From: an uncultured Chitinophagales bacterium | GTDB taxonomy: Bacteria; Bacteroidota; Rhodothermia; Balneolales; DATFMH01 | NCBI GenBank assembly: GCA_964572735.1 | Contig: CAZNHE010000002.1 | Location: 7,684-71,683 of the forward strand | DNA: 64,000 bases | Direction of reading: 5' to 3' | Shown here: one piece after another, positions 1 through 21,277 of the stretch | Layout of the letters: every line of letters starts with the position of its first letter | How positions within the stretch are numbered: the first letter of the stretch is position 1 | Position numbers and translations under genes: made by a program | Notes under the pieces: generated by a model | What the model saw: only the letters and a program-made list of their open reading frames with translations | Databases searched by the model: none | What the model was told of the DNA's origin: nothing

Positions 1-37
1 AGGCAGACACGTCCCGGAGGCGGTCTGGCATTATCGG

Positions 38-3000
38 GTGCATAACGATGGGCTCTACCAGTCGCAAATCAGTAAGGATCAGCGGTTGAAGGCCAGAGTG
101 GTAATGAACCATCCGCGCTTATATACGCAGGCCCAGAAGAAATGGGCAAAGGGAGTTTTGACAGGCAATACGGAGGCATTGGGTATCACCGGTGGCATAG
201 GTATGGTTCCGCAATTTGATAACGCTCTGGAAACACCCCAGGTTGATAGACAACGATCTAATATCGGTGACAGTGGACGTGAGTCCCGTCACATCCTCTT
301 CACCATGTACGGTTGGGACGATGAGGGCGGCGGTACGATCCTGCCGCGCCAGATTGCCAAAGAGCTGGTCCGCCGGGGAAACCGGGTGAGCGTGATTTAT
401 ACGCCATCTAAGAACCTGCCGGATAAGCCGGCGTATTATCTGGAGCAGTCCGAAGACGACGGGGTGCAGCTTTTTGCCGTTTACAACCGCCCTGCCCTGT
501 TTTACGATGTGAACCATCCGGAGCGCGAGATCAGTGATCCGAAGATGCGTGAACTGGTGGGCGGAATCATTGCAGAACTGAAGCCGGATATCATCCACTA
601 TCACAGTTTCCTGAATTTTTCGATGGGTGTGGCAAAGGATGTGCACGAAGCGGGCATTCCGAGTGTCTATACTTCCCATAATTATTGGCCGCTTTGTCCG
701 CGAATGTATTTGTTTGACGACAAACTGAATTTGTGCAGTGGTCCCTCTGCGGATGGTTCCAAATGCGCAGCATGTGTAAAAAATAATGATCAGAAGGATG
801 GTTATGCTGCGCGCGCCGAAGAAGGCCGCCGGATGCTCGGCGAATACGTCGACCGCCATCTGGCCGTGTCGAACCGGGTGAAGGAGCTGTTTGTTGCCAA
901 CGGACATCGGGAAGATCGCATTCATGTATTACAGCAGCAACCAGAAACGGCCGACAGGATCTGGCGGACCGTGGGGGTGAAACGAGAGATTGTGGAAGAC
1001 CTGAATCGTCCCCTGAGGATCGGTTTTATCGGCTCCCTGCTCCTGCAAAAGGGCGTTCATCTGCTGGTGCAGGCATTGCAGGCGTTTTCCAGGGAACGGT
1101 TGGAAGGTTTTGTATTCGGAGGCGGCCCCGAGCCCGTCGTTAAGTGGCTGAAGACGCTCGACAAGAAAAATCTTGTCACGTTCACAGGAAAATACGAACT
1201 GAACGAGCTTCCCGATCTCCTGAAGAAAATTGATGTCATGGTGGTTCCCTCCGTTTGGGAAGATTGTGCACCGCTGGTCGTGTCCGAGGGACTCGCTGCC
1301 CGGCTTCCTGTGATTGGCGCAAGGATGGGCGGCATCCCCGACTTCATAGAAGAGGGCACGACCGGCTTTCTTTTTTCTTATAATGATGTGCAGGAACTGG
1401 CTCAGAAAATCGGGGGGTTCATCTCTGATCGGAAACTGCTGGGCAGGATGCAGCGGAACATTCGATACACGCGCTCCTTCGGTGATTATATGGATGATCT
1501 GCTTCGTCATTATAATGAAGTGATGGACTCCAATGAAACGAGACGGAGTCCGCAGCAAGAAAAACGGGGGGTCATTATTGAGGGTTCTCAGTTCGTGAAC
1601 CACTCTTTGGCACGCGTAAATCGCGAAATCGGCAAGCAACTGATCCGGCGGGAATACAGCCTCTCGATCCTTCCATATGAGAAAGATACATGGATTCCCG
1701 AAAAAGGAACGGATGAATATGCCTTGTATGAACATTACCGTGCGCCTGTTCCCTCAGGCAATCATGTACACATTCGCCATCGCTGGCCACCCGATTTTAC
1801 TCCGCCGGCAAGCGGACACTGGGTGATCATCCAGCCCTGGGAGTTCGGCAGCCTGCCGGAAAAGTGGATACGGCCGATGTCGGATCTGGTGGATGAGGTT
1901 TGGGTTCCCAGCCATTATGTAAAGGAATGCTATGTGCGAAGCGGCGTGCCGGACGATCAGGTTCAGGTAGTTCCCAACGGGGTGGATACCGAAATGTTTA
2001 CCCCGAAAGCCAAACCTTATCCTCTTCATACAAAAAAGTCCTTCAAATTTTTATTTGTGGGAGGTACTATTGCCCGGAAGGGAATCGATGTGCTGCTCAA
2101 TGCCTATGCCCGCAATTTCACGGCAAAGGATGATGTCTGTCTGGTCATTAAAGACATGGGAGGGAGCTCCTTTTATCGCGGACAGACTGCCGCCGATACC
2201 ATTACCCGGCTCCAGACACACCCCGATGCTCCGGAAATCGAATACATTGATGAGGAATTGAGCGATGAGGAAATCGCCGGCTTGTATACTGCGTGCAACT
2301 GCCTGGTTCATCCATATCGCGGCGAGGGATTTGGGCTGCCTATAGCGGAAGCGATGGCGGCCGGCCTTCCGGTGATCGTCACCGGCTGCGGAGCCGCCCT
2401 TGATTTCTGTAATGATGATAATGCCTGGCTTATAAAGGCCCGGGAAATGAAGCTAAAAGAGAAAGCCATCGGATCCCTCAAGACCGTCGATCATCCCTGG
2501 TGGGCCGAACCGAATCCCGAATCGCTGGTGCAACTCATGAAATATGTGATACAGCATCCTGAAGAGGTTCAGAAAAAGGCGAAGAAAGCCCGGAAAACGA
2601 TTCTTACCCGTTTCACCTGGGATAATGTGGGAGATTGCGTGGCACGAAGAATAAATGAGCTTTCGGGAAAACCGATCAGGCGCCTGCAGCCGGCAATGAC
2701 GCCGAAGTGGACCAACAAGGAGTCCTTCATCCGCCATTTTATGCAACGTGTGCAGCGCCAGGAATGGAACCCGTTGATGGAGGAAACCGAAAAAGTCTGC
2801 CGTCAATACCCTGACGACACCTACCTGTGGGTGCTCCGGTCCATTGCCCTGCGGATGAATGCCTGTTTTGACGATGCTATAGAAGCCGTGCAACACTCAC
2901 TGAGGATCAATGAAACCCCCGAGGCACTGTACGAGACAATCCAGCTTGCCGGGGTAATGAATAAACCGGAACAGGCTCAGGCGGTTACCCATCGCCTGCA

Positions 3001-3061
3001 ATCGAATTATCCGGATTGGTGGCGGCAGATGGCGTCACAGGCAGAAGTTGAGCAACGTTGA
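38..3061 (+). CDS. Large tandem glycosyltransferase (two GT-B/GT4-like modules) with a helical TPR-like C-terminal tail. The frame is open to the window edge, so the true start may lie upstream.
   Basis: 1007-aa ORF. First module: HILFTMYGWDDEGGG...IIHYHSF. Second module: FLFVGGTIARKGIDVLL...HPYRGEGFGLPIAEAMAAGLPVIVTG (GT4 E-x7-E type signature). No in-frame stop between nt 2 and the GTG at 38. Confidence 0.8.
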   Translation: MHNDGLYQSQISKDQRLKARVVMNHPRLYTQAQKKWAKGVLTGNTEALGITGGIGMVPQFDNALETPQVDRQRSNIGDSGRESRHILFTMYGWDDEGGGTILPRQIAKELVRRGNRVSVIYTPSKNLPDKPAYYLEQSEDDGVQLFAVYNRPALFYDVNHPEREISDPKMRELVGGIIAELKPDIIHYHSFLNFSMGVAKDVHEAGIPSVYTSHNYWPLCPRMYLFDDKLNLCSGPSADGSKCAACVKNNDQKDGYAARAEEGRRMLGEYVDRHLAVSNRVKELFVANGHREDRIHVLQQQPETADRIWRTVGVKREIVEDLNRPLRIGFIGSLLLQKGVHLLVQALQAFSRERLEGFVFGGGPEPVVKWLKTLDKKNLVTFTGKYELNELPDLLKKIDVMVVPSVWEDCAPLVVSEGLAARLPVIGARMGGIPDFIEEGTTGFLFSYNDVQELAQKIGGFISDRKLLGRMQRNIRYTRSFGDYMDDLLRHYNEVMDSNETRRSPQQEKRGVIIEGSQFVNHSLARVNREIGKQLIRREYSLSILPYEKDTWIPEKGTDEYALYEHYRAPVPSGNHVHIRHRWPPDFTPPASGHWVIIQPWEFGSLPEKWIRPMSDLVDEVWVPSHYVKECYVRSGVPDDQVQVVPNGVDTEMFTPKAKPYPLHTKKSFKFLFVGGTIARKGIDVLLNAYARNFTAKDDVCLVIKDMGGSSFYRGQTAADTITRLQTHPDAPEIEYIDEELSDEEIAGLYTACNCLVHPYRGEGFGLPIAEAMAAGLPVIVTGCGAALDFCNDDNAWLIKAREMKLKEKAIGSLKTVDHPWWAEPNPESLVQLMKYVIQHPEEVQKKAKKARKTILTRFTWDNVGDCVARRINELSGKPIRRLQPAMTPKWTNKESFIRHFMQRVQRQEWNPLMEETEKVCRQYPDDTYLWVLRSIALRMNACFDDAIEAVQHSLRINETPEALYETIQLAGVMNKPEQAQAVTHRLQSNYPDWWRQMASQAEVEQR

Positions 3062-3088
3062 AGTTCAAAGACACGAAGGAAGAATTAA

Positions 3089-3161
3089 CCACAATGTTCG
3101 CAAAGGTTTCACAAAGTACACAGAGACAAACACATAGTGAACATTGTGGGATTCATTGTGG
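3089..3161 (+). repeat. Inverted repeat with a duplicated 3-prime arm, in the gap between the two glycosyltransferase genes
   Basis: CCACAATGTTC (3089-3099) is the exact reverse complement of GAACATTGTGG (3139-3149). A second CATTGTGG copy at 3154-3161 is followed by TCTATTTTC. Confidence 0.6.
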
Positions 3162-3211
3162 TCTATTTTCTAAGGCTTCATTATGGTAAATAATAATAAT
3201 CATCATTTAAA

Positions 3212-4501
3212 ATGCCGCGTACGGTTTCGCCAAAACTCAGTCTGGTTATTCCTGTCACGGAAAATCGCCGGGTATTCGTTTCACAATGCCTGGCCGACCT
3301 GAGCCGGCAGACTATTTCCTCTGAAATGGAAATCATCCTGACGGGAACAGGAGACTATCTCAATGAAGTTTCCGCAGATCGTTTTTCCGGTGTGGCGATC
3401 CGTAAAGTGGAAAGTGGGTCCGATTCCCTCTTCCGTCTTTGGAACGAAGGATTAAAAAAGGCGGCTTCTCCCTTCGTCTCCGTTATACACCCGGCGGACC
3501 GCTATCGTCCGGATGCTTTTGAGCAGATGACAGGCGAACTCGATCGTCATGAGGATATCCCGGCGGTTTATGCGGATGCACTGGTTACGGATGAGGAAAA
3601 TGAAACGTTTGAAGTTCATAGTGCACAGGGTGCGAAGCGGTTTCCCGATTATGACCGCGGGAGCCTTATAGAACGTGGTTTTACAGAACTCAGGCCGGTA
3701 TGGAGATCCTGCCTGCACCGGCAATGCGGTTATCTGGATGAAGGATTGACCGCTGTCGCCGATCTTGAATTCTGGCTGAGGATCAGTGGCCGGGACCGGT
3801 TCCGGCATATCCCCGAATTTTTGGCTCTTCGTTTTGAAAAGCCGGGTTATCAGAGGATGGTCCCCGAGAAAAAACGCCGTGAGGAATTCACCGCTGTTCT
3901 TCCGTTTTATGAGAATGACTATTCGGGAAAAGGCGAGGCTCTTTCCCAAATGATCCATAAATGCCGGAAGATGGAGCACCTGGCCGGAGGGGCCGGTTTT
4001 GGGAAACGGATAGATCAGGAAATTTCAAAAAATCCGTCGAACCAGGAGCTCTGGCTGCTCAAGGCGAGGCATTTGATGCAGGACGGAAACCGCAAAGAGG
4101 CGGAATCTTTCCTGAGGCAGGCCGTAGCAAGGTTTCCAAATGAACCCCGGTTTATCCTGCACCGGGCCATTCTTCTTTGGAAGACCGGGCATAAGCGCCA
4201 TGCGGTCGAAATGCTGGAAGAGGTCATCCGGAACAAACCTCTGGAGGCACAGGTTCATGCAACATTATCTGAAATGTACAGTGAAACCGGTCAGGCGGAT
4301 AGGGCCATACAGGAATACGTTTTTCTTATCAATCATTCGGGAGATCATCTTTCACTATATACATCATTAATTCGTCATCTGCTGGAACAGGGCGAGCTGG
4401 TCAGGGCACACTATTATTATCATATAGCCTGTCGGAAACATCCGGAAAACGCAGAATTGCAGAAAATCGCACATTTGTTTAGATGGCCCCAAATCGGCTG
4501 A
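3212..4501 (+). CDS. Family-2 glycosyltransferase fused to C-terminal TPR repeats
   Basis: 429-aa ORF. N-terminus LSLVIPVTENRRVF...LSRQT is typical of GT2 (GT-A fold). The C-terminal half has repeated A/Y/L-rich helical pairs (WLLKARHLMQDGNRKEAESFLRQAV...). Confidence 0.75.
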   Translation: MPRTVSPKLSLVIPVTENRRVFVSQCLADLSRQTISSEMEIILTGTGDYLNEVSADRFSGVAIRKVESGSDSLFRLWNEGLKKAASPFVSVIHPADRYRPDAFEQMTGELDRHEDIPAVYADALVTDEENETFEVHSAQGAKRFPDYDRGSLIERGFTELRPVWRSCLHRQCGYLDEGLTAVADLEFWLRISGRDRFRHIPEFLALRFEKPGYQRMVPEKKRREEFTAVLPFYENDYSGKGEALSQMIHKCRKMEHLAGGAGFGKRIDQEISKNPSNQELWLLKARHLMQDGNRKEAESFLRQAVARFPNEPRFILHRAILLWKTGHKRHAVEMLEEVIRNKPLEAQVHATLSEMYSETGQADRAIQEYVFLINHSGDHLSLYTSLIRHLLEQGELVRAHYYYHIACRKHPENAELQKIAHLFRWPQIG

Positions 4502-4557
4502 GAGAGGCGGGACAAGCCGTTTCGGGCGAGATGCCTTCTTTTTTCTGGGTGCAGATG

Positions 4558-4588
4558 TTTAAGCTGTAAAAACCAAATGACGATAAGT
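4558..4588 (+). promoter_or_regulatory. Sigma-28 (FliA/SigD)-type promoter of the flagellin gene
   Basis: TTTAAG-N17-CGATAAGT, i.e. TAAG-N15-GACGATAA versus the consensus TAAA-N15-GCCGATAA. It lies 64 nt upstream of the fliC ATG. The same architecture recurs at 5554-5584. Confidence 0.65.
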
Positions 4589-4600
4589 TGGCTATAGTCA

Positions 4601-4618
4601 AATCCCAAGGATGGGATT
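4601..4618 (+). promoter_or_regulatory. Putative CsrA binding hairpin in the flagellin 5-prime UTR
   Basis: Perfect 7-bp stem AATCCCA/TGGGATT with loop AGGA. A second GGA lies in the SD-like AAGGAG at 4640-4645. Confidence 0.55.
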
Positions 4619-4651
4619 CCGAAACAAATAACCAAAAAGAAGGAGCTAATT

Positions 4652-5479
4652 ATGTCATTCGGAGACTTTAACCGCATCAACACCAATGTACAGTCGATGC
4701 AGGCACAGTTGTCGCTGAACCGGATCAACAACCGGCTTTCAAATGTACAACTGAAGTTATCTACAGGTAAAAAGATTAACCACGCAGAAGATGACGCTGC
4801 CGGTTTCTCTATTGCTGCCAAACTTTCATCCCGGATTGCCGGTATGAACCAGGCCATGCAGAACATTGGGGATGCCAAATCGGTGCTCAACATCGCCGAA
4901 GGAAGCATAAACAACGTGCTGGATATCCTTAATACGATGAAAACCAAGGCGACCCAGGCCGCCAATGGCACATTAGGAAGCACCGAAATCGGGTATGTCA
5001 ACGATGAAATCAACGGTTTGGCTAAAGAAATTACCTCTATCGTTGATACAACCAAGTTCGAAGACACCAAGCTGCTGGACGGTAGCTATACTGCTACGTT
5101 CCAAACCGGTGAAGATAGCAGTGATACGCTGGCTGTGAGCCTGAGCGGTGTAAACACCTCGGACATCGGACTGGGCAGTATAAGCATAACGACAGCCTCG
5201 GATGCCAACACCTTCCTGGCTTCGATTGATGACGCTGTCAGCCAGGTTGCCGGTTATATGAAAGACATCGGGGTGTATCAGTCACGTCTGTCCATCCGCC
5301 AGGATGTGCTGGCTGAAAACATCAACAACAACAGCAGCGCGCTCAGCAGTGTTCAGGATACTGACTTTGCCAAGGCGCAAAGTGAATCTATTAAGCTGCA
5401 AATCCTGCAACAAACAGCTATTGCTGCTTTGTCTCAAGCCAACGCGGCTCCGCAGGCAGTACTCAAATTCATCGGATAA
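4652..5479 (+). CDS. fliC: Flagellin (short, D0/D1-only type)
   Basis: 275 aa. N-terminus RINTNVQSMQAQLSLNR...INHAEDDAAGFSIAAKL. C-terminus DTDFAKAQSESIKLQILQQTAIAALSQANAAPQAVLKFI. Confidence 0.95.
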   Translation: MSFGDFNRINTNVQSMQAQLSLNRINNRLSNVQLKLSTGKKINHAEDDAAGFSIAAKLSSRIAGMNQAMQNIGDAKSVLNIAEGSINNVLDILNTMKTKATQAANGTLGSTEIGYVNDEINGLAKEITSIVDTTKFEDTKLLDGSYTATFQTGEDSSDTLAVSLSGVNTSDIGLGSISITTASDANTFLASIDDAVSQVAGYMKDIGVYQSRLSIRQDVLAENINNNSSALSSVQDTDFAKAQSESIKLQILQQTAIAALSQANAAPQAVLKFIG

Positions 5480-5517
5480 TCAATCGGTGAAGGCAAGAAT
5501 GACAAGTCAATTGTCTG

Positions 5518-5556
5518 GACAGGGAGTATCGGGAACGAAACTCCCTGTCATTTTTT
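5518..5556 (+). terminator. Rho-independent terminator after fliC
   Basis: 10-bp stem GACAGGGAGT/ACTCCCTGTC, 12-nt loop, then A plus TTTTTT. Confidence 0.8.
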
Positions 5557-5584
5557 AAGAAAATGACCGAAATGACCGATAAGT
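5554..5584 (+). promoter_or_regulatory. Sigma-28-type promoter for fliS-fliD-flaG-orf-flgM
   Basis: TTTAAG-N17-CGATAAGT (TAAG-N15-ACCGATAA). The -35 overlaps the T-tract of the fliC terminator. It ends 15 nt before the fliS ATG. Confidence 0.55.
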
Positions 5585-5598
5585 AGTTTTTCAAGCAC

Positions 5599-5904
5599 AT
5601 GAATAATGCCCTTAATACCTATCAGCGACAAGCCGTTCTGAACGCCTCTCCTGAAAAGCTCATTTCCATAATTTACGACGGAACCATAGCCGCCGCTTAC
5701 CGGAAAGACCAGGCCAGGCTTTTGGAGGGCCTCCAGATCCTCACTCTTTCGCTGAATTTCGAGTATGACGTGGCTAAAAACTTCTATAATCTGTATCAAT
5801 ATTGCCGCCACAGAGTTCAGGTAAACGAATTTGACGAAGTTCGGGAATTGTTAGATGATATCAGGACAGCATGGAATGAACATGTGGTGAAAAGCAAAGA
5901 ATAG
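5599..5904 (+). CDS. fliS: Flagellin-specific export chaperone FliS
   Basis: 101 aa. YQRQAVLNASPEKLISIIYDG... matches the FliS N-terminal pattern. Sits between fliC and fliD. Confidence 0.85.
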   Translation: MNNALNTYQRQAVLNASPEKLISIIYDGTIAAAYRKDQARLLEGLQILTLSLNFEYDVAKNFYNLYQYCRHRVQVNEFDEVRELLDDIRTAWNEHVVKSKE

Positions 5905-5925
5905 AATTCTAAAAATGGACCGATC

Positions 5926-7443
5926 ATGGCAATAAGTTCTTCTACCAGCAGCGATTATGCATCTCTGTTTAAGGCCAATGATCCTTACTCGCAGTTGATC
6001 GATAATCTGATCACGCTGGATAGCACTCAAAAAAACAAGTATGTAAGTCAGAAGCAGACAGAGCAGAATACAGAGGATGCCATAAGCGATGTCAGCTCTG
6101 ACATGTCTGCATTAAATACCCTCCTCACTAATTACGTCGGCCCTCTGGCAAATCAGCTGGAAGCGCCTGAGGCAACCTCTTCCAATCCCGATTCTTTTTC
6201 CGTTACCGCCGGCGATGGGCTGGAGACCAAAGGCGACTTCTCCATCAGCATCCAGAATATCGCCCATAACGATACCCGGTATACGGCACAATTCTCTACA
6301 ACGGGAACCGACATCGTTGATCAGCTCACCGACGCTTCCCAGCCCGGAAGTTTTGAGATGACGGCAGGAGGCAATACATATACCATTCAGGCGGGCGACC
6401 TTAGCGGGATGGATAATGAAGACGCCCTCTCTGCCATTGCCAGCGCGATAAACTCGGTTGCAGGCGACAGCGTGAACGCCAGCATTGTCCATGAGAGTTC
6501 GGGAACCGTACGATTATCAGTACGCAGCCTGGAGAGTGGTTCTGCTAACCAGATATCTTTTCAAAATACGGCCGATGCTGCTAATCCTGCCGAAATTCTG
6601 GGCTTTACCAATGGCAGCGGCTCGGGATCCGAAGGCCAGGATAACACCGCTCTTATCAGCGGAACGGCAGCCGGCCGGGTGTATGACACGGACGATCTGG
6701 ATGCCCATTTTACCATGGATGGCCTGAGCTATACCCGCAGCTCTAATAAAGTGGATGACGCCATTACCGGCCTTACAATCAATCTGCTGGCACCTACAAC
6801 AGGTTCTGATACCATAACCATCGGCAGTGACAGCGATCAGGGCAAACAGGCGCTGCAGGATTTTATCGATGCCTACAACAAGCTGAATTCGGATATCCGG
6901 AGCAAATCGTCATTGGATCCTGACACCGGCGAACGCGGACCGCTCGGCAATGACCGCACTTTCAAAAATCTGATGTATACCCTGCAGAATGCAATGATTC
7001 AGACGGTCTCGACCTCGGGCGATTATACCAATATTTTTTCGATCGGTCTGAATTTTCAGCAGGATGGAACGCTGTATATTGAGGATGAATCCAAACTGGA
7101 TGAAGCGCTTAAAAATGACCCCGATGCCGTTCAAAAACTGTTTTCCAATGACTCGGGGAGCGACACGATAACCGACGGAGACGGTCTGGCCAAACGACTA
7201 CAGTCGCAAATCGACAGCTATGTAAAGGCGGGCGGCGTCATCGACGAAATGAAGTCTTCTGTTGAGGCACGGATCTCACAACTGGATGATCAGATATCCC
7301 AGCAGGATGATTATCTGGCTATGAAACGAAAGATCTACGAGCAGCAATATACTCAGCTCGAACAGCTTTCCAACACAGCTACCGCCCAGTTCAATACCAT
7401 ACAAGCCATCATGGCCAACACGACAGCCATTTATTCATCCTGA
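5926..7443 (+). CDS. fliD: Flagellar filament cap protein FliD
   Basis: 505 aa. C-terminal coiled coil RISQLDDQISQQDDYLAMKRKIYEQQYTQLEQL is typical of FliD. Synteny with fliS. Confidence 0.9.
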   Translation: MAISSSTSSDYASLFKANDPYSQLIDNLITLDSTQKNKYVSQKQTEQNTEDAISDVSSDMSALNTLLTNYVGPLANQLEAPEATSSNPDSFSVTAGDGLETKGDFSISIQNIAHNDTRYTAQFSTTGTDIVDQLTDASQPGSFEMTAGGNTYTIQAGDLSGMDNEDALSAIASAINSVAGDSVNASIVHESSGTVRLSVRSLESGSANQISFQNTADAANPAEILGFTNGSGSGSEGQDNTALISGTAAGRVYDTDDLDAHFTMDGLSYTRSSNKVDDAITGLTINLLAPTTGSDTITIGSDSDQGKQALQDFIDAYNKLNSDIRSKSSLDPDTGERGPLGNDRTFKNLMYTLQNAMIQTVSTSGDYTNIFSIGLNFQQDGTLYIEDESKLDEALKNDPDAVQKLFSNDSGSDTITDGDGLAKRLQSQIDSYVKAGGVIDEMKSSVEARISQLDDQISQQDDYLAMKRKIYEQQYTQLEQLSNTATAQFNTIQAIMANTTAIYSS

Positions 7444-7479
7444 TAATCGATCATCAACCGGAATGGAAGGTAATGAGTC

Positions 7480-7899
7480 ATGGACATTACAAGCAGAATA
7501 ACATTCACGCCGTTAGACCAGGATTCGAATCATAAGATCGACCGGCTGATTTCGCCTCCTGCAGATTCTCCTGGAGAACAACCCGCTTCACAGGCAGCCG
7601 GCACCGGACCCCGCGTAAACCATCCCGCCCCGGAATCTAAGGGACAAAGTGGTGCGGGTGTTGTTTCAAAGCAGCAAATCGGAACCCATGATGTTGATAC
7701 GGATGATGAATATGAACTGAAGCTCACAAAGTTAAAATTCTCTAAGGATGAGCAAACAGGGAAAATGGTTGTAAAGGTTATCGATAAAAACACCGATAAG
7801 GTAATCAGGCAGGTACCGCCGCAGGATTTTCTGGATATGGTCCACCAAATGCGAAAGGCGGCGGATGAGTTGCTTAAACGATTACCTAAAACAATTTAA
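7480..7899 (+). CDS. flaG: FlaG family flagellar protein
   Basis: 139 aa. C-terminal LKFSKDEQTGKMVVKVIDKNTDKVIRQVPPQDFLDM matches the FlaG domain pattern. Confidence 0.75.
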   Translation: MDITSRITFTPLDQDSNHKIDRLISPPADSPGEQPASQAAGTGPRVNHPAPESKGQSGAGVVSKQQIGTHDVDTDDEYELKLTKLKFSKDEQTGKMVVKVIDKNTDKVIRQVPPQDFLDMVHQMRKAADELLKRLPKTI

Positions 7900-8288
7900 T
7901 GGAACAGGCAGAACAGATCGAGGCACCGCTGTCACAGGCTATCGCCATGAGCCGGGAATTGCTGGCAATGAGTGAGAAAGATGAGCCGGATCTGGAAGAG
8001 ATGGAGTTGGGATTTCAGAGCAGGGGGAAGCTGATTGATAAAATTCAGTCTGCCTTGAAATCGATGAATCAGGCTGATACTTTGCCTGGTGACCGCCGTG
8101 ATGCCGTCTTGCAATCTCTGGGCGAACTTGAAGAAATTGACGTCCGGCTGCGGGATCATCTCTCTGTTTTGCTCGACCAAAAGCGCGTCTCGCTGCTTAG
8201 AATACGACGAGATGAACGGGCCGGCAAGAGCTATCAGAGAAAGCGTGTAGGTCATGCATTGTTCATACGAAACAAACTGGAAGGCTGA
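7899..8288 (+). CDS. Hypothetical helical flagellar-locus protein, possibly a FliT-like chaperone
   Basis: 129-aa ORF translationally coupled to flaG (TAATG overlap). All-helical, acidic. Position equivalent to fliT/yvyF-type genes. No diagnostic motif seen. Confidence 0.4.
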   Translation: MEQAEQIEAPLSQAIAMSRELLAMSEKDEPDLEEMELGFQSRGKLIDKIQSALKSMNQADTLPGDRRDAVLQSLGELEEIDVRLRDHLSVLLDQKRVSLLRIRRDERAGKSYQRKRVGHALFIRNKLEG

Positions 8289-8294
8289 GATATT

Positions 8295-8741
8295 ATGGAT
8301 ATTTCCCGCTTAGGAGAGCACAACAGACACATTGAGCAACACAAGTTTCAGGCAGAAATCAAGCCGATTGACAACTATTCGGATACTCCTCCGTCGGATG
8401 CCCCTGATTCTGTCAAATTTACGCCGTCTCATAACGACAAAGTGGAATTATCGGGTAAGTCATCGAAGCAGGAAACCGACATTGCGCGCAAAATCTATGA
8501 TAAACTCGATGCACAAAGCCAGGATAATGTGCATCGTGCCAGAGCAAATATCAAAAATGGTGTTTATAACCTGAGCAACCCCGAAGTAACCCACAAAATT
8601 GTGCAGGGAATCTCCGGACAGGAGGAAAGTACGCCTGTAACTCAGAGCCGGTTGGACGAAATCCGGAATAAAGTTAAAAATAATCAGGACGTTCTTAATA
8701 CCATTTCCCACCGTTTATATTCCTCGTTGAGGAATCTCTGA
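8295..8741 (+). CDS. flgM: Anti-sigma-28 factor FlgM-like protein
   Basis: 148 aa. DKVELSGKSS and RARANIKNGVYNLSNPEVTHKIVQGI resemble the FlgM pattern (D.V.LS ... I..G.Y.vd...iA.kl). Confidence 0.6.
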   Translation: MDISRLGEHNRHIEQHKFQAEIKPIDNYSDTPPSDAPDSVKFTPSHNDKVELSGKSSKQETDIARKIYDKLDAQSQDNVHRARANIKNGVYNLSNPEVTHKIVQGISGQEESTPVTQSRLDEIRNKVKNNQDVLNTISHRLYSSLRNL

Positions 8742-8817
8742 TAAAAATCTGATCAATTAATAGACATATACCTTTCCAAAACGTACCTTTGCGTATAATA
8801 ACAACAGCTAACGAAGG

Positions 8818-10242
8818 GTGGTTTTGAAAGGGCGAATTTTTGTTGTCGATGACGAGTCGTTGATGCTCCAGTATCTGGAGAAGCAATTGGTGTCTAATGG
8901 ATACGAAGTGGCGGCGTTTGATTCTCCACAGGTTGCTTTTGAGGAATTGGGTTCCGGAGACGTGGATCTTGTCATTTCGGATGTGAAGATGCCGGGTGTT
9001 ACCGGCGACGAAGTGCTGGACCACATAAAACGGCATCATCCGGAGGTCGGCGTTATCCTCATTACCGGGTTCGGGAGCATCAGTCATGCGGTGAATGCGG
9101 TGCGTAAGGGTGCGTTCGATTACATCACCAAGCCGTTTGGCGGTGCTGAGATTACCGCACGCGTTAACCGCTTTTTTAAACACCGGGAGGAAACCGGCCG
9201 CGTCAGTTTTGAAGGCGATACCCTGGAGGCACCGGTATCAAAGGAAACGGTTAAGGGGAAACCTGCCGCCAAACCGTCGGTACGATACGAAGCCAAACTG
9301 ATCGGCAGTGACCCCAAAATGCAGCAACTGCTGGAAGTCATCCCCCGCATTGCGCAGAACGATGCGCCGATCCTGATACAGGGAGAAAGCGGAACCGGCA
9401 AGGAGGTTTTTGCCTCGCTGATCCATTATAATAGCGAGAGAGCCGAAGGGCCTTATGTGAAGATCAACTGTGCCAATCTTCCCAGAGAACTTGTGGAAAG
9501 CACATTGTTTGGCCACGTGAAAGGCGCCTTTACGGGTGCCGTGTCAGATGCGAAGGGAGCCTTTGACGAAGCCCGGTGCGGCACCTTATTGCTGGATGAG
9601 ATCACTGAAATCGAATTGTCGGTTCAGGCCAAGTTGCTGCGTGTGTTGCAGGAGCGGGAATTCCGGAGGGTGGGCAGCCAGAAGGAGATCAAGGCCGACG
9701 TACGTGTTATCGCCACGAGCAACCGGAACATCGGAGAAGCCATACGCGAGGGTTCGTTCCGCAAAGATCTTTATTACCGGCTCAGTGTGTTTCCACTTGC
9801 CATCCCTGCCCTGCGGGAGCGCCGTGGCGACATCCCTTTACTTGCAGAATATTTCTGCGATAAGTATGTACATGAGAATGGATCTTCACCAAAGAAAATT
9901 TCAGACGAACTCATGGATTACCTGAAAAATCAGGAGTGGAAAGGCAATGTGAGAGAACTCGAAAACCTGATACAACGCGGCGTTATCATGGCAGGGGACG
10001 CCCCGGGGATAACGCTTGATCATGTTCGTAACCTCCTGTTCGATCAGATTGATGCTTCGTTTCGCGAGGAAGTCTTTGATGAACTGCCCCTGTTACCTAT
10101 CGAGGAAATGGAGATCAGGCTGATTCAGAAGGCGTTGCAACGGACGAACGGTAACCAGAAGGAAGCGGCGCAATTATTGGGTATCTCCGACCGCACCATT
10201 CGTAACAAGCTCAAAAAAGGGAACGACGACGAAGCAGGTTAG
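8818..10242 (+). CDS. Sigma-54-dependent response regulator (NtrC/FleR/FlgR class: receiver, AAA+ and Fis-type HTH domains)
   Basis: 474 aa. Receiver IFVVDDE...ISDVKMPG. Walker A GESGTGKE. GAFTGA sigma-54 contact motif. C-terminal QKEAAQLLGISDRTIRNKL. GTG start. Confidence 0.9.
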   Translation: MVLKGRIFVVDDESLMLQYLEKQLVSNGYEVAAFDSPQVAFEELGSGDVDLVISDVKMPGVTGDEVLDHIKRHHPEVGVILITGFGSISHAVNAVRKGAFDYITKPFGGAEITARVNRFFKHREETGRVSFEGDTLEAPVSKETVKGKPAAKPSVRYEAKLIGSDPKMQQLLEVIPRIAQNDAPILIQGESGTGKEVFASLIHYNSERAEGPYVKINCANLPRELVESTLFGHVKGAFTGAVSDAKGAFDEARCGTLLLDEITEIELSVQAKLLRVLQEREFRRVGSQKEIKADVRVIATSNRNIGEAIREGSFRKDLYYRLSVFPLAIPALRERRGDIPLLAEYFCDKYVHENGSSPKKISDELMDYLKNQEWKGNVRELENLIQRGVIMAGDAPGITLDHVRNLLFDQIDASFREEVFDELPLLPIEEMEIRLIQKALQRTNGNQKEAAQLLGISDRTIRNKLKKGNDDEAG

Positions 10243-10260
10243 CCCCTCAATATCATCATC

Positions 10261-12363
10261 ATGAATACGGGATCCCCGGAGCAGGGTGATATTATTAATC
10301 ATATTGCCGAGACCACGGTTATGCTTACCGGGGTCGACATCCCCATGCTCGGAGCAATACTCCGGGATCTGGATCACCTCGATCCAAAAGTGTTTGCTGC
10401 GGAAATCCGGAAGACCAAAGAAGTAGCTGAAGCTCTCATTCTTGACGAGTTTAAAGATCCCCGGAAGGGACTTTCCGCATTGAACCGGTGTGTGGAACAG
10501 TTGCAAAATGCCTTTAATAACACGCGTTTTGCTTCTCTGGATGAGCGACAGGGTAAACGGAAACGCCTGGAGCAGGAGGATGATACCGGGATATCAGGGG
10601 AGGGAAAAAGCACGATTCCACTCGACGAAGAAGAACAGAACGCTATTCATGAATCCGGGGATACTCCCGGCCGGGAGGAGATAAATACCAACTATGAGGC
10701 TCTTTTAACGGCAATTCGGGAGGATGATACGGTGTATCGCGAGTTTGTCGACGAGGCAGTGGTTAATCTGAGTGAAGTGGAGCAACATCTGTTGGCCCTG
10801 GAATCAAATCCCGATGATCCGTCGCTGATAGATGCCGTCTTTCGTCCGTTTCATACGATAAAAGGTGTGGCCGGTTTTCTGAACCTGGTGGAGATAAACA
10901 AACTCTCGCACCTTTACGAGGATTTGCTGGATAGCATTCGCCGCCGACAGGTGGAAGTCAGCCGGAAGTTGATCGATGTGATCCTTGAAGGGGTCGATAC
11001 GTTGCGCAGGCTTATAAGCGAATTATCCGACGGTCTTAACAAAGATAAAACACCTGATTTTCGGGTAGATCTGGAAGCTTTTCAAAAGAAAATCCAGAAG
11101 GCGCAACAGGGCCGGCCGGGTTCATCGAAAAAACAAAAAAAAGCGGTCGAAACTAAAAAACAGGAAGGGGAATCCCCGGCCAAAGATATTGATCTGATTC
11201 ACGACAGCTATATTCGTGTGGATATTAATAAGCTGGACCAGCTGGTTGATATGATGGGTGAGCTCGTGATCATTCAGAATATTATCACCGATGACCCCCG
11301 GATTGCTAATAATACCGACGAAAAGCTGCAGCGGAATATCACCCAGTTAAAAAGAATTACAGGTCAGTTGCGGGACCTTTCGACGGCGCTGCGTATGGTA
11401 CCGGTACGTGACATGTTTCAGAAGATGCAGCGCGTTGTACGCGATTTAAGCCGTAAATCGAAAAAAGAAATCGCTCTCGAAATCCACGGAGAAACCACGG
11501 AAATAGACCGTAGCATTGCCGACGAGCTCTATGAACCGCTGGTACACATCATCCGTAATAATTGCGACCATGGCATAGAACCCCCGGATGAACGGATGAA
11601 TATGGGGAAATCCAGAACCGGAACGATCGCTCTGAATGCATATCACCATGGCGGCCGGGTCATCCTTGAGATCAGCGACGACGGCCGGGGAATCGATTTC
11701 AAAGCCGTCCGCAAAAAGGCGATCGACCGCAGGCTGATCCGGGCCAATGAGAAAGTGCCGGAAGGAAAACTGCTGGAAATGATCTTTAATCCGGATTTTT
11801 CCACAAGTGAGACCGTAACAGAGATATCGGGACGCGGAGTAGGGCTTGATGTCGTCAAACGTACGGTAAACCGATTGAACGGCAACGTGGAAGTACAAAC
11901 TGAACCCGGAGGGGGCAGTACGTTCGTCATCAATCTGCCCCTGACACTTGCTATGATCGATGGTGTGCTTGTGAAGGTCGGTGGCGAACGGTACATCATA
12001 CCCAGCGTTCACGTGAGAGAAACATTCCGGCCGCTGCAATCGCAGCATCGCTACCTGGCAGGGAAAGGGGAATTCCTGCTGTTTCGTGATGAAATCCTCC
12101 CGCTCATCCGGCTGGGGCGGCTTTTTGAGGTCCATGATGCTGCAGAAGAACTGGAAGAGATGCTGGCTCTGGTTGTTGAGGACAAAAAGAAGAAAGCGGT
12201 CCTGCTGGTAGACCAACTGGTAGACAAACAGGAACTGGTCATCAAGTCGCTGGGCGACCAGTTTGGGCAGTTGGAAGGATTGGCCGGCGGAGCCATTCTC
12301 GCCGACGGACAGATCGGTCTTATCATTGATGTCGGCACCCTCCTTCCCGAGGTTTCCGTCTAA
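10261..12363 (+). CDS. cheA: Chemotaxis histidine kinase CheA, with an N-terminal extension and no recognisable P2 domain
   Basis: 700 aa. HPt motif FRPFHTIKGVAGF (His198). P3 IRVDINKLDQLVDMMGELVI. N-box HIIRNNCDHGIE. G1 DDGRGID. G2 GRGVGLDVV. CheW-like C-terminus. Confidence 0.95.
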   Translation: MNTGSPEQGDIINHIAETTVMLTGVDIPMLGAILRDLDHLDPKVFAAEIRKTKEVAEALILDEFKDPRKGLSALNRCVEQLQNAFNNTRFASLDERQGKRKRLEQEDDTGISGEGKSTIPLDEEEQNAIHESGDTPGREEINTNYEALLTAIREDDTVYREFVDEAVVNLSEVEQHLLALESNPDDPSLIDAVFRPFHTIKGVAGFLNLVEINKLSHLYEDLLDSIRRRQVEVSRKLIDVILEGVDTLRRLISELSDGLNKDKTPDFRVDLEAFQKKIQKAQQGRPGSSKKQKKAVETKKQEGESPAKDIDLIHDSYIRVDINKLDQLVDMMGELVIIQNIITDDPRIANNTDEKLQRNITQLKRITGQLRDLSTALRMVPVRDMFQKMQRVVRDLSRKSKKEIALEIHGETTEIDRSIADELYEPLVHIIRNNCDHGIEPPDERMNMGKSRTGTIALNAYHHGGRVILEISDDGRGIDFKAVRKKAIDRRLIRANEKVPEGKLLEMIFNPDFSTSETVTEISGRGVGLDVVKRTVNRLNGNVEVQTEPGGGSTFVINLPLTLAMIDGVLVKVGGERYIIPSVHVRETFRPLQSQHRYLAGKGEFLLFRDEILPLIRLGRLFEVHDAAEELEEMLALVVEDKKKKAVLLVDQLVDKQELVIKSLGDQFGQLEGLAGGAILADGQIGLIIDVGTLLPEVSV

Positions 12364-12387
12364 ACCAGTTGCCCCGGCAGCCGATAA
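12361..12387 (+). promoter_or_regulatory. Consensus sigma-28 promoter between cheA and cheW
   Basis: TAAA (12361-12364, containing the cheA TAA stop), a 15-nt spacer, then GCCGATAA (12380-12387). This matches TAAA-N15-GCCGATAA exactly. Confidence 0.6.
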
Positions 12388-16622: not shown

Positions 16623-17336
16623 TTAGCCGAACAGGCGATCGATCTCGTCCTGGGTCATATCCGGTTTATGAAGAGGATTGTTCCGGTCCCCGGAGGGTTC
16701 TCCGTCGGCAGTGAGCTTTCCGTCGTCGACGATAAAGGAGTTAAGGATATGATCGATTTCTTCGGGATCAACGCCGAGTGATTGCATCAGGTATTCCTTT
16801 GTTCCCTCTGAAACGTCCAGTTTGTTGATGCAGGAGAACAGGGAGATAAGTTTCGACTGCGCCTGGCTCAGCACTTTCTTCACATGAATCAGTTTTTGGG
16901 ATACGATATCATGAAATTGCAAGGCGTTAATGATCTCATCGGTATCCTGACGAAACTGCTCCAGTTCGTTTGCAAAGGCTTCCGGCGGTTGCTTTGCCAC
17001 CTTTTCTTTTGTATCCCATTGATCGAGACGTTTCTGAACACTGGTTACACGACCCATGATCCGGAAGGTGGAGCCGGTCATTTGTTCGATAGATTCTCCG
17101 AGAACCCGGGCCATATTCGGCATGATGCCCTGGTTGACCAGGGTGTGATCGGAAACGTGCCCCAGTAATGGAGTCATATCATTCAGGAAAAGGAACAACT
17201 CCTCCAGCAGTGGCATGATCTCCTCGCCCAGGGAAAATAATTCCTTGAGATGCCGGATGCGATCCATGATCTCGTCATAATGCCGTCCATCGCCGGAGAA
17301 AGATGGAGTTGCGGGTCGTAAGTTTTCAGAGGGCAT
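16623..17336 (-). CDS. Divergent CheZ-like CheY-P phosphatase
   Basis: 237 aa helical protein immediately downstream of a cheY. ALQFHDIVSQKLIHVKKVL aligns by eye with E. coli CheZ AQDFQDLTGQVIKRMMDVI (D-x3-Q; here D143/Q147). The C-terminus DMTQDEIDRLFG resembles CheY-binding peptides. Confidence 0.55.
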   Translation of the reverse strand: MPSENLRPATPSFSGDGRHYDEIMDRIRHLKELFSLGEEIMPLLEELFLFLNDMTPLLGHVSDHTLVNQGIMPNMARVLGESIEQMTGSTFRIMGRVTSVQKRLDQWDTKEKVAKQPPEAFANELEQFRQDTDEIINALQFHDIVSQKLIHVKKVLSQAQSKLISLFSCINKLDVSEGTKEYLMQSLGVDPEEIDHILNSFIVDDGKLTADGEPSGDRNNPLHKPDMTQDEIDRLFG

Positions 17337-17868: not shown

Positions 17869-19092
17869 TTATTGAAGAATAATAGATTCTAATCTTTCGA
17901 TGAGCTGTTGATATCGGGCGATGAGGGCCTGAATCTGCGGAGTGGCAGGAACCTGTTCGAGTATTTGCAGGGCCCGGATGAAATGCTTTCTTGCCTGGTC
18001 GATTGATCCTGCATTGAATTCAGCCTGTCCCAATTCCGCCCACAACTGATAGGTGGAGGGTGCCATCGTCACGGCTTCTTGCAGCAGGGAGGCTGCCTCG
18101 GCAAACCGCCTTTCGCCGCTAAGGATGCCGGCTTCCCTCCTGCGAAGATCAACCTCCAGTTCGGAGATGTGGCTTTCGTTTTTTCTCCCGCCTGCCTGGC
18201 CTGTTTTTCGACGATACAGTTGGTAACATTTGGCCGCCTCGTGTAACTGCCCCTGCAATTCCAGCCTCCGGCCGTGATAGAAATAATAATCGGGCAGCAC
18301 CTCCGGCCGGGGAAGTATCCTGAAGTATTTCTTCAGGAGTGTGTCGTTTTTCCCGGAAAAAGCGTATTTGAAGCACAGATGGAGGATATGGCGGCGCATG
18401 GGGAAAGTCACGCCGTACCAGAGAGCCTGATCGGCGAACGCAATGGCCTTATCCGGTTCGCCCTCCATATAATAATGCTGGGCGAGGTAGGACAGCAGGA
18501 ACGGATTGTGGGGAGATTCCCGGAGTTTTTCTTGTAGGATGGCCAGGTTTCGCCGGCGTTTGCCTTTAATATCGGCCTGGTAATTATATCCCTTGTGCAA
18601 AATCCGGACCTTACCGGCCGATACCAGTGTTCTGTGAATATGCAGGGTCTCATGGATGGCCGATTCATAATGGACGTCCGGATGATTCCGGTAGAAACGG
18701 ATCAGCCGGTGGATTAGCGACACCTCCCCGCTTTCTTTGGTACTCAGATTGTGAATGTCGAGATAATAGCCGAACGCTTCCTCCCAGGGGTAGGTCTGGT
18801 AAAACCATGGAATATCGTTCCTGCAAATTTCTTCGTCGGCATCGAGTTGAAGGATCCATGGATTTTTTGCATGAGCCAGGGAGGCATTTCTGGCCTCGGC
18901 GAAATCGTTTTTCCAGGTGTGGTTATATACCGAAGCCTGAAACTCGCGCGCAATATCGATCGTCCGGTCTGACGAGCCGGTATCGACAATCACCATTTCA
19001 TCCACCCATTCCTGCACGCTTTTGAGGCAGGAGGCGAGATGGCGTTCCTCATTTTTGACGATCATGCATAACGAGACCGGCAGTTTATCCAT
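17869..19092 (-). CDS. Family-2 glycosyltransferase fused to C-terminal TPR repeats
   Basis: 407 aa. VSLCMIVKNEERHLASCLKSV...VIVDTGSSDRT...LQLDADEE (GT2 DxD region). TPR-like C-terminal half. Last gene of the flg/fliW/csrA operon. Confidence 0.8.
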   Translation of the reverse strand: MDKLPVSLCMIVKNEERHLASCLKSVQEWVDEMVIVDTGSSDRTIDIAREFQASVYNHTWKNDFAEARNASLAHAKNPWILQLDADEEICRNDIPWFYQTYPWEEAFGYYLDIHNLSTKESGEVSLIHRLIRFYRNHPDVHYESAIHETLHIHRTLVSAGKVRILHKGYNYQADIKGKRRRNLAILQEKLRESPHNPFLLSYLAQHYYMEGEPDKAIAFADQALWYGVTFPMRRHILHLCFKYAFSGKNDTLLKKYFRILPRPEVLPDYYFYHGRRLELQGQLHEAAKCYQLYRRKTGQAGGRKNESHISELEVDLRRREAGILSGERRFAEAASLLQEAVTMAPSTYQLWAELGQAEFNAGSIDQARKHFIRALQILEQVPATPQIQALIARYQQLIERLESIILQ

Positions 19093-19126: not shown

Positions 19127-19657
19127 TCAGGCGAAAATAGGATGGTCCGGATCTCTTTTCCGGGCTTCCTCAAAATAAGTCTCTGCCTTTTCCTCATGTC
19201 CCGCCCCTTTCATCAAATCTCCCATCATGATCCAATTTTCGACATCGTCAGGGTTGGTCGTGATGCGGTCTAACAAATATTGGGCGGCCTCATCATATTG
19301 TTCTCTCAGGATGTAGAGCAATACCTGGTTCCGGTGTGCCGCTTCCAGATCTTCCAGCTCGATGGCTTCACGGAGATCCTTTTCGGCGGATTCCAGATCG
19401 CCCTGATTCATTTTTGCAAAGGCTCTAAGATTAAACAACCTGGAGTCGTAGGGCGCATTTTCGATAGCCTGATCCAGTGCGATGATGCTTTTTTCCCATT
19501 CATATTGATACTGATACGCCATTGCGCTGATATGAAAGGGATCGGCAGCTTCCGGGTTTTCTTGTTGCAGCCGGGCGGCAAGCTGCAGACAGCGGTCGAA
19601 ATCCTCCTGTTCAAGGGCCTGGAGGCAGGCTTCAAGTTGTACGTCGTAAGAAGGCAT
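19127..19657 (-). CDS. TPR repeat protein
   Basis: 176 aa. Repeated 34-residue A/Y/L patterns (AMAYQYQYEWEKSIIALDQAIENAP...). The start lies 2 nt after the csrA stop. Confidence 0.7.
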   Translation of the reverse strand: MPSYDVQLEACLQALEQEDFDRCLQLAARLQQENPEAADPFHISAMAYQYQYEWEKSIIALDQAIENAPYDSRLFNLRAFAKMNQGDLESAEKDLREAIELEDLEAAHRNQVLLYILREQYDEAAQYLLDRITTNPDDVENWIMMGDLMKGAGHEEKAETYFEEARKRDPDHPIFA

Positions 19658-19658
19658 G

Positions 19659-19907
19659 TCAGGGTTCCTTTTGAGATTTTAGCTTTTTCAGGATTTCGGG
19701 AAGATTCACCGAATCCGGTTTGGTGGAGGCGAGAGAATCGCGGTTTTCAAATTTCACACGATCCATAATTTCATCACGGACAATCGAGACATCGCGCGGG
19801 GCATCGATCCCCAATTTGATTTGGTTCCGGTTGATTTCAACGACCGTGATTTTGATGTTGTCATTCAGGTAAATTCCTTCACCCTCTTTGCGGGAGAGAA
19901 CCAGCAT
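19659..19907 (-). CDS. csrA: Carbon storage regulator / translational repressor CsrA
   Basis: 82 aa. MLVLSRKEGEGIYLNDNIKITVVEINRNQIKLGIDAPRDVSIVRDEI is the canonical CsrA fold sequence. Confidence 0.95.
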   Translation of the reverse strand: MLVLSRKEGEGIYLNDNIKITVVEINRNQIKLGIDAPRDVSIVRDEIMDRVKFENRDSLASTKPDSVNLPEILKKLKSQKEP

Positions 19908-19916
19908 GGTTTTTCC

Positions 19917-20321: not shown

Positions 20322-20373
20322 GGTTGAATCAGGCGTTTTCGACATAAGAACCGGCTCAGACATGCGATTATGA

Positions 20374-21267: not shown

Positions 21268-21277
21268 AGGCGGAGCA

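Follow-up and report, generated by a model that had tools for sequence, protein, structure and literature searches.

Closest described systems

Flagellin glycosylation has been examined thoroughly in a handful of pathogens and hardly at all in environmental phyla. We analyzed a 64,000-nucleotide (nt) stretch of DNA from an uncultured Chitinophagales bacterium that GTDB places in the Balneolales (assembly GCA_964572735.1, contig CAZNHE010000002.1, positions 7,684 to 71,683 of the forward strand; the whole stretch is called the window below), in which genes for glycosyltransferases (GTs) and tetratricopeptide repeat (TPR) proteins lie among flagellar genes. On sequence evidence, we regard these genes as a well-supported but unproven flagellin O-glycosylation island.

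Several described systems bear on this locus. In the glycocin S-glycosyltransferases SunS and ThuS, a GT2 domain is followed by a TPR-like helical domain that recognizes the peptide substrate. The flagellin of Listeria, FlaA, is shorter than 300 amino acids (aa). In Listeria monocytogenes, GmaR (Lmo0688) is both an O-linked N-acetylglucosamine (O-GlcNAc) transferase and an anti-repressor of MogR, and its N-terminal domain transfers GlcNAc to flagellin (PMC9638930). In Clostridioides difficile, the enzyme CD0240/GT1 primes N-acetylhexosamine (HexNAc) on serine and threonine residues of FliC, two further enzymes called GT2 and GT3 extend the glycan, and the genes lie beside fliC; type B flagellin of this species involves priming and extension GTs together with methyl and sulfonate decorations (PMC5207246). 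FlmG of Caulobacter and Maf-1 of Shewanella and Campylobacter are soluble cytoplasmic proteins in which a TPR domain binds flagellin (PMC7591256; bioRxiv 10.1101/2023.12.03.569772) and a separate domain is catalytic. The chemistry described for flagellin glycosylation is cytoplasmic and uses soluble donors (PMC7591256), and a small separate helical adaptor, GlfM, shows that such a protein can be required (bioRxiv 10.1101/2023.12.03.569772).

Components of the Balneolales locus

The original prediction, made from the sequence alone, was that three GT-TPR fusion proteins and a stand-alone TPR protein carry out multistep glycosylation of flagellin or of a hook-associated protein, putatively with common sugar donors. 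The four corresponding open reading frames (ORFs) are all present, and together with the proposed acceptor they lie as follows.

2 to 3061, plus strand: C-terminal 1,019 codons of a giant multi-GT, whose gene runs off the left end of the window; the first ~12 residues complete a GT2 module and are followed by GT4 module 1 (nt ~326 to 1465), GT4 module 2 (nt ~1580 to 2650), and a weak TPR-like helical tail (nt ~2675 to 3058)
3212 to 4501, plus strand: 429-aa protein with a divergent GT-A (GT2-like) domain and C-terminal TPR repeats, directly upstream of fliC
4652 to 5479, plus strand: fliC, 275 aa, proposed acceptor, matching only Flagellin_N and Flagellin_C in Pfam
17869 to 19092, minus strand: 407-aa GmaR/SunS-like GT2 and TPR protein, proposed from homology, model, motifs, and synteny as the priming flagellin O-glycosyltransferase
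19127 to 19657, minus strand: TPR176, a 176-aa all-TPR protein (Pfam TPR), separated by 1 nt from csrA and by 34 nt from the GT2-TPR gene that follows

Judged from sequence, the most probable role of this system is that of a cytoplasmic flagellin O-glycosylation machinery, to which we assign a probability of roughly two in three. The core of the predicted multistep glycosylation is thereby upheld at the level of homology and comparative genomics, namely, by a match to GmaR, a peptide-directed fold, and a conserved linkage to flagellar genes. The count of three GT-TPR fusion proteins was not upheld, since one of them is the C-terminal half of a larger multi-GT and another, whose active site is degenerate, is possibly not an enzyme.

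A GmaR-like GT2-TPR protein encoded near csrA

The strongest and most informative evidence for flagellin glycosylation is the 407-aa protein. Its identification as a GT2-TPR protein was confirmed with Pfam (GT2, E = 9e-19; matches to TPR_19, TPR_2, and TPR_14). In phmmer searches of the PDB, residues 6 to 192 matched residues 11 to 201 of Listeria GmaR (22ao_A) with an E value of 2.1e-33, and the protein also matched SunS (E = 4e-21). Its structural model (predicted local distance difference test [pLDDT] score of 91) has all-helical repeats at residues 175 to 406. The best folds found with the model were the SunS/ThuS peptide glycosyltransferases (E = 4e-17 to 7e-15), whereas the wall-polymer GTs TarS and RmlT reached only ~1e-7. 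Two motifs, D37-T-G-S-x-D42 (DTGSxD) and D84-A-D86 (DAD), are invariant across 26 homologues.

At the sequence level, the 407-aa protein is a close catalytic-domain homologue of GmaR. Like GmaR, it has an N-terminal GT2 domain (GT-A) in which the DXD motif is kept, followed by TPRs, and both would have a short flagellin as the target, which for the 407-aa protein is proposed only. In contrast to GmaR, however, which has 637 aa, it has neither the linker nor the MogR-binding anti-repressor domain, and the only GmaR chain that it matched in the phmmer search is the 204-residue GT domain. It also comes from a diderm host, and its gene is part of a flgKL-fliW-csrA gene string. The absence of the linker and anti-repressor domain indicates that the 407-aa protein is a GmaR-like catalytic homologue rather than a GmaR orthologue. 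SunS and ThuS share the fold class, but these enzymes S-glycosylate cysteine in small secreted bacteriocin precursors, and no such precursor or gene cluster is found at this locus.

The neighboring TPR176 had been described as a stand-alone TPR protein, in agreement with Pfam, which finds TPRs throughout. It is a possible adaptor or scaffold. TPR176 also gave sub-threshold matches to TPR chaperone models of type III secretion (SctY, E = 6e-6; LcrH/SycD, E = 3e-3) and a match to the PADLOC candidate model PDC-M71B (E = 8e-7), which probably reflect generic TPR similarity.

The giant multi-glycosyltransferase

The long ORF at the left end of the window had been taken for a 1007-aa protein with two GT4 (GT-B) modules and a helical-repeat tail (38 to 3061). 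Both modules were confirmed with Pfam (Glycos_transf_1, E = 1e-44 in two stretches; Glyco_transf_4 also matched), and the (E/D)x7E motif is kept in each of them (DCAPLVVSE and EGFGLPIAE). The protein itself is not complete. Its frame is open to the window edge, with no in-frame stop codon between base 2 and the GTG at 38 (bases 2 to 37). The residues ahead of this GTG, GRHVPEAVWHYR, align with GKHVAGAIWHYR, which is internal in a 1,930-aa orthologue (contig L011) and in a 1,280-aa ORF (L010) and in the orthologues directly follows a GT2-type YEDWDFW motif. The open frame and these upstream residues, which align inside longer orthologues, indicate that the supposed 1007-aa protein is a C-terminal fragment.

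The fragment is 68% identical to the last ~1,020 residues of the L011 protein, and a 1,596-aa orthologue in L012 reaches ~590 residues upstream of the matched region; orthologues range from 1,596 to 1,930 aa in length. The two orthologues that were scanned both have two additional GT2 domains upstream, and the 1,930-aa protein has a third GT4-type stretch, the positions suggesting the order GT4-GT2-GT2-GT4-GT4-TPR-like tail. Of this giant GT, whose orthologues have four or five GT modules, the window contains no more than the final two GT4 modules and the tail. The helical-repeat tail was recovered, but its TPR character is weak here (E about 0.05 to 0.2). It is near the threshold in the 68%-identical orthologue and a clear TPR in an orthologue with 52% identity.

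In L010, the giant GT is represented by two overlapping ORFs, 5226 to 8363 (1,045 aa) and 8305 to 12147 (1,280 aa), which could reflect a frameshift, an assembly error, or a genuine split. A Pfam match to "GT4-conflict" raised a role in defense; PADLOC was empty for all of the GTs, and the match covers the generic C-terminal half of the model, so that this role was rejected.

The 429-aa protein upstream of fliC

The second proposed GT2-TPR protein was only partly confirmed. Its TPRs gave strong Pfam matches and a GT-A fold is predicted, but the GT2 assignment by Pfam is sub-threshold (17 bits against a cutoff of 23.3) and two canonical aspartates are replaced. An AlphaFold (AF2) model built from 12 sequences (pLDDT of 84) has a GT-A domain followed by TPR repeats, and with Foldseek it matched WrtF, AvpGT, and SpsA at E values of 4e-11 to 3e-10. 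Alignment with the GmaR-like family in hhalign gave a probability of 96% over 292 columns that span both domains, with the family-invariant D37 and D84 replaced. Where canonical relatives have VVDSGS and NTDDRHR, the 429-aa protein has LTGTGD and HPADRYR. Of the canonical nucleotide-binding aspartate and the full DXD/DD motif, it keeps only D96. This residue and a D184-x-E186-FWLR motif are invariant, and the invariance of the latter makes activity still conceivable from the sequence. On this basis, the 429-aa protein appears to be a derived and possibly inactive GT-A/TPR protein, for which the roles of a pseudo-glycosyltransferase adaptor and of an atypical GT are both possible.

An exhaustive HMMER search placed the N-terminal domain in a very large GT2 subfamily (4,343 hits), usually found as two to five tandem copies in proteins of 1,000 to 5,089 aa, many of which have TPR regions (P0135 to P0283). 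A word-indexed search had returned 14 hits and pointed to a tiny family, which holds for the full-length architecture only. The subfamily looks like a large, uncharacterized class of multimodule soluble glycosyltransferases. One of its giant GTs, in contig L040, lies among a radical-SAM enzyme, a DegT aminotransferase, methyltransferases, and other giant GT-TPR proteins. The idea that the N-terminal domain is a recent copy of the GT2 modules of the neighboring giant GT was rejected, the BLASTP match to the L011 giant protein being weak and N-terminal (E = 1e-5).

The 429-aa gene follows the giant GT gene at a distance of 150 nt, compared with 5 to 12 nt in relatives. Directly 3' of it lies a terminator-like hairpin with a T-run (4524 to 4536), which would make the GT genes and fliC separate transcripts.

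The proposed acceptor

As had been predicted, the flagellin is short, and its variable segment is rich in serine and threonine. Residues 121 to 200 of the 275-aa FliC are the least conserved part among orthologues of 75 to 77% identity, and within this part residues 146 to 188 are 37% Ser/Thr. A serine or threonine is kept at positions 134, 147, 152, 163, 165, 180, 181, and 191 in all six orthologues compared, even in flagellins with only 39% identity.

Conservation of the linkage to flagellar genes

Both parts of the locus are conserved in relatives. On the minus-strand side, the order flgK-flgL-fliW-csrA-TPR176-GT2/TPR-cheY is kept in L001, where the GT is 62% identical, and in L003 (35%). 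Orthologues of TPR176 with 48 to 69% identity occupy the same position in L001, L003, and L004; in the last of these, fliW-csrA is missing, but the TPR gene is retained and there are two GT2-TPR genes in tandem. A 427-aa TPR protein in L004 was considered as a counterpart of the 429-aa protein and was rejected, as BLASTP found no homology (E = 1.3). On the plus-strand side, the order of the giant GT, the 429-aa protein, fliC, fliS, and fliD is kept in four related contigs, with full-length orthologues of the 429-aa protein directly upstream of fliC in all four of those examined. In L012, whose giant GT is 52% identical, the parts form a single cluster: flgK, flgL, a response regulator gene, a TPR gene, a sulfatase gene, the giant GT, a GmaR-like GT2/TPR gene, two copies of fliC, and fliD. 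The division between two loci, which the original prediction had considered unusual, is no distinctive trait of the system but a lineage-specific arrangement, being conserved across the lineage and absent from the L012 cluster.

The linkage also recurs in other phyla. We retrieved 26 distant loci with the second GT4 module and scored flagellin genes within 10 kb. A GT4-module protein with flagellin at this distance was found in 6 loci, from Caldilineae, Brocadiaceae, Ignavibacteria, two Desulfacinum genomes, and a deltaproteobacterial metagenome-assembled genome (MAG). A GmaR-like GT2-TPR match over the whole GT domain stands alongside in five of these six and in 14 of the 26 loci. The domain architectures were confirmed for the Ignavibacteria and D. 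infernum loci, and the GmaR-like gene adjoins or is close to fliC in L012, L023, and L033. Flagellin genes make up very little of any genome, and on this rarity argument the co-location of GTs and flagellin is far above chance. The GT4 module is found together with a GmaR-like GT2-TPR protein in Balneolales, Ignavibacteria, Desulfobacterota, Chloroflexota, and Planctomycetota, a recurrence from which it can tentatively be argued that the pair could represent a major uncharacterized route of flagellin glycosylation in environmental bacteria.

An archaeal occurrence was also seen. In a Methanomicrobiales MAG contig of 132,935 bp (L015, 9062 to 15236), a 1,306-aa GT4-GT2-TPR protein, whose GT4 module is 60% identical to that of the window, adjoins a 609-aa TPR-GT2-TPR protein. 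This could be due to horizontal transfer, mis-binning, or a nonflagellar use of the module.

Soluble enzymes and the comparison with known systems

No membrane-like segments were predicted in the four GT/TPR proteins, in which the highest 19-residue hydropathy is 1.6, inside a GT4 core. Pfam families for lipid-carrier priming, phosphoglycosyl transferase, flippase, polymerase, exporter, and oligosaccharyltransferase functions were absent from the GT/TPR proteins, their flagellar neighbors, and 20 ORFs screened at 31 to 64 kb. The lack of membrane segments and of lipid-carrier machinery fits the cytoplasmic, donor-soluble chemistry of flagellin glycosylation. As in operationally defined flagellin glycosylation islands, the GTs are soluble and adjoin flagellin and late flagellar genes, and the linkage is conserved. 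Linked nucleotide-sugar genes are a frequent but not obligatory feature of such islands. The prediction that the window has none agrees with our screen, in which no nucleotide-sugar synthesis family was matched among the same 20 ORFs.

The locus shares its logic of priming plus extension with the type A and B loci of C. difficile, a likeness drawn from their described roles. In C. difficile, too, the fliW-csrA region is near the flagellin modification locus. A further likeness lies in the relative L011, which carries a sulfotransferase-methyltransferase gene. In contrast to C. difficile, the extension GTs here are fused in one polypeptide (~1,600 to 1,900 aa in orthologues) with a TPR tail, and the gene for the proposed priming GT belongs to another gene string, at a distance of 13 kb. 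Given the accompanying multi-GT extension enzyme, the product is probably an oligosaccharide, unlike the single GlcNAc added by GmaR.

FlmG and Maf-1 share the docking principle, and they provide experimental precedent for the claim that the TPR modules dock flagellin, which for the present proteins is made by analogy. Their catalytic families differ: FlmG has TPRs followed by a GT-B domain and Maf a MAF_flag10 domain, and both use nonulosonic-acid donors from linked pse/leg genes. MAF_flag10 and DUF115 are absent from the three GT proteins and TPR176 according to Pfam, and no pse/leg genes were found among the proteins screened, including the ORFs at 31 to 64 kb. The giant GT, in which GT-B modules precede a C-terminal TPR-like tail, is set apart from the FlmG class by its architecture.

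Proposed mechanism and its weak points

From the computed homologies, folds, motifs, synteny, and lack of membrane segments, we infer which protein is the acceptor, in what order the enzymes act, which sugars are added, and which proteins are adaptors, as follows. FliC would be bound before its export via the flagellar type III apparatus. The 407-aa protein would capture FliC through its TPR domain, and its metal-dependent GT-A domain (DAD) would add the first sugar to Ser/Thr hydroxyls, probably a HexNAc by analogy with GmaR and CD0240/GT1 of C. difficile. The giant multi-GT would then extend the glycan by one sugar per module, while its TPR-like tail would keep it on the substrate or on other TPR proteins. 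The 429-aa protein might be one more GT, binding its donor in an atypical way, or an adaptor that binds flagellin and has lost catalysis, and TPR176 might be a scaffold or specificity factor comparable to GlfM in role though not in sequence.

Several points weigh against this scheme. Glycosylation of the flagellins of this lineage is a conclusion from homology and comparative genomics only, and only the GT and TPR parts of GmaR are present, so that function is transferred from one domain. The 429-aa protein, having lost two canonical aspartates, may not be an enzyme. The window starts inside the giant GT gene and has no nucleotide-sugar genes among the ORFs screened. In addition, the pair of a GT4 module and a GmaR-like GT2-TPR protein occurs without flagellin within 10 kb in Anaerolineales, Isosphaeraceae, Gemmataceae, and the Methanomicrobiales MAG, and a Clostridium GT2-TPR homologue (P0095) has no flagellin or flagellar context within 8 kb. 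These occurrences indicate that the family is not exclusively flagellar.

A more elaborate version of the scheme can be put forward tentatively. In it, a giant protein of ~1,900 aa with five GTs and a TPR anchor would act as an assembly line that builds a defined oligosaccharide on flagellin, aided by a dead GT-A/TPR pseudo-glycosyltransferase and a small TPR adaptor, with the priming GT coexpressed with FliW-CsrA. Such coexpression would let the glycosylation capacity track the flagellin supply. The oligosaccharide would possibly be methylated or sulfated. L011 has a 738-aa sulfotransferase-methyltransferase fusion upstream of the giant GT (1285 to 3501), together with a further GT4 and GT2, and L012 has a sulfatase-family gene beside the giant GT (7144 to 8355). 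These genes hint at a sulfated and/or methylated glycan.

Alternative explanations

Of the alternatives, the one that survives best, though we consider it unlikely, is that the GTs act on other proteins instead of or besides FliC, either the axial proteins FlgK, FlgL, FliD, and hook or a wider range of targets in general cytoplasmic O-glycosylation. The 407-aa GT gene is packed with flgK-flgL and not with fliC, the closest solved folds of its product belong to enzymes that act on small peptides rather than flagellin, and the GT4 and GmaR-like modules are also found without nearby flagellin, including in the archaeal MAG. However, the GmaR-like gene is at or close to fliC in the three loci named above, the 429-aa gene precedes fliC directly in each of the four related contigs examined, and GmaR, the only experimentally characterized close homologue, acts on flagellin.

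Synthesis of a cell-envelope or secreted polysaccharide or of a glycolipid, with the motility neighborhood being incidental, is improbable. The GT4 and GT2 domains do give generic matches to enzymes of exopolysaccharide, lipopolysaccharide, teichuronic-acid, and glycogen synthesis, but every NCBIfam match was far below its curated cutoff. There are many giant multi-GTs, with lengths of up to 5,089 aa, that share the GT2 subfamily with the 429-aa protein and occur in sugar-modifying clusters in which flagellin is not visible, and the related giant-GT cluster of L040 is on a 16.8-kb contig without flagellin. Against this, the flagellar linkage at the present locus is conserved at 35 to 69% identity and recurs in several phyla, and every component has TPR protein-binding domains. 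The lack of predicted membrane segments and of lipid-carrier priming, flippase, polymerase, and exporter families in the proteins screened also speaks against envelope synthesis.

It is very improbable that the GT-TPR and TPR proteins mainly regulate or chaperone the flagellin supply, as a GmaR-like anti-repressor, a FliW-CsrA partner, or an export chaperone, with sugar transfer being secondary or lost. In favor of such a role, GmaR combines two functions (PMC9638930), fliW-csrA is directly followed by the TPR176 and 407-aa genes, the active site of the 429-aa protein is degenerate, and TPR176 has the weak, below-cutoff matches to SctY and LcrH/SycD. Against it, the 407-aa protein is too short for the GmaR linker and anti-repressor domains and has invariant catalytic residues, L004 keeps the TPR and GT genes without fliW-csrA, and the catalytic motifs of the giant multi-GT are kept.

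Novelty and significance

As a cytoplasmic flagellin O-glycosylation machinery, the locus belongs to a known kind of system, and no current concept is overturned. What is new is the lineage and the fusion of four or five GT modules and a TPR tail in one protein encoded beside fliC. New, too, are the proposed priming GT at the end of a flgKL-fliW-csrA gene string and, encoded immediately upstream of fliC, a degenerate but conserved GT-A/TPR protein. Neither multidomain GTs acting in flagellin glycosylation nor any flagellin glycosylation in Balneolota came up in a full-text literature search, which is weak negative evidence. If confirmed, the system would be the first flagellin glycosylation system described for Balneolota and, if our interpretation is true, would define a widespread module consisting of a GmaR/SunS-like priming GT2-TPR protein and large fused GT4/GT2-TPR extension enzymes. 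For glyco-engineering, soluble, substrate-tethered multimodule GTs that build up a protein-linked glycan within the cytoplasm would be attractive, and the degenerate GT-A/TPR protein would allow the idea of pseudo-enzyme adaptors to be put to the test.

Gene order, the fliC leader, and neighboring genes

The remaining features that bear on expression of the locus are as follows.

4560 to 4586, plus strand: sigma-28-like fliC promoter, TAAG-N15-GACGATAA, from a pattern search; conserved in three orthologous loci
4601 to 4646, plus strand: fliC leader, with a predicted hairpin (4601 to 4618) that has A-GGA in its loop and a second GGA (4642 to 4644) in the Shine-Dalgarno region (4637 to 4646)
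19659 to 22636, minus strand: flgK-flgL-fliW-csrA, in the same tightly packed string, upstream of TPR176 and the 407-aa gene

The hairpin and both GGA motifs of the fliC leader are invariant in three orthologous loci. In Bacillus subtilis, the hag leader has a two-site CsrA layout. By analogy, the fliC leader looks like a candidate two-site CsrA-binding layout, and the genome also has fliW-csrA.

On the plus strand, the long ORF (to 3061), the 429-aa ORF, and fliC are followed by fliS, fliD, and flaG and then by a weak FlgM-like gene, a sigma-54 activator gene, and che genes. The minus strand from 27.5 kb to 16.6 kb carries flgF-flgG-flgA-flgH-flgI, an flgJ-like gene, flgN, flgK, flgL, fliW, csrA, the TPR176 and 407-aa GT2-TPR genes, cheY, and a CheZ-like gene. 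The presence of L- and P-ring genes indicates a diderm cell. The flgL, fliW, and csrA genes were identified with Pfam, and flgK was assigned by its position and by syntenic genes of relatives that Pfam annotates as FlgK.

The gaps in flgK-flgL-fliW-csrA are -26, -17, and +9 nt, and the gaps of 1 nt (csrA to TPR176) and 34 nt (TPR176 to the 407-aa GT gene) that follow are likewise operon-like. The 407-aa GT and TPR176 genes had been called the last genes of this operon. This is plausible. No terminator was detected after them, and a sigma-28-like promoter, TACA-N15-GCCGATAA (17852 to 17826, minus strand), lies between the stop codon of the GT2-TPR gene and cheY. With this promoter, transcription of cheY and the CheZ-like gene would seem to be separate from that of the 407-aa GT gene. 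Scans for sigma-70 promoters and terminators gave counts no better than those of shuffled controls, with the exception of the hairpin after the 429-aa gene, and were not used to define operons.

A further sigma-28-like promoter, TAAA-N15-GCCGATAA (12361 to 12387, plus strand), was seen before cheW. The gene after cheY (16623 to 17336, minus strand) encodes a 237-aa protein without a Pfam or NCBIfam match; its positional counterparts in relatives show faint CheZ matches, and it is likely a divergent CheZ-type phosphatase. Finally, an ORF on the minus strand (29194 to 30660), ~2 kb beyond the flagellar basal-body genes, resembles DnaA when its sequence is read by eye, and the motility region may therefore be close to the replication origin.

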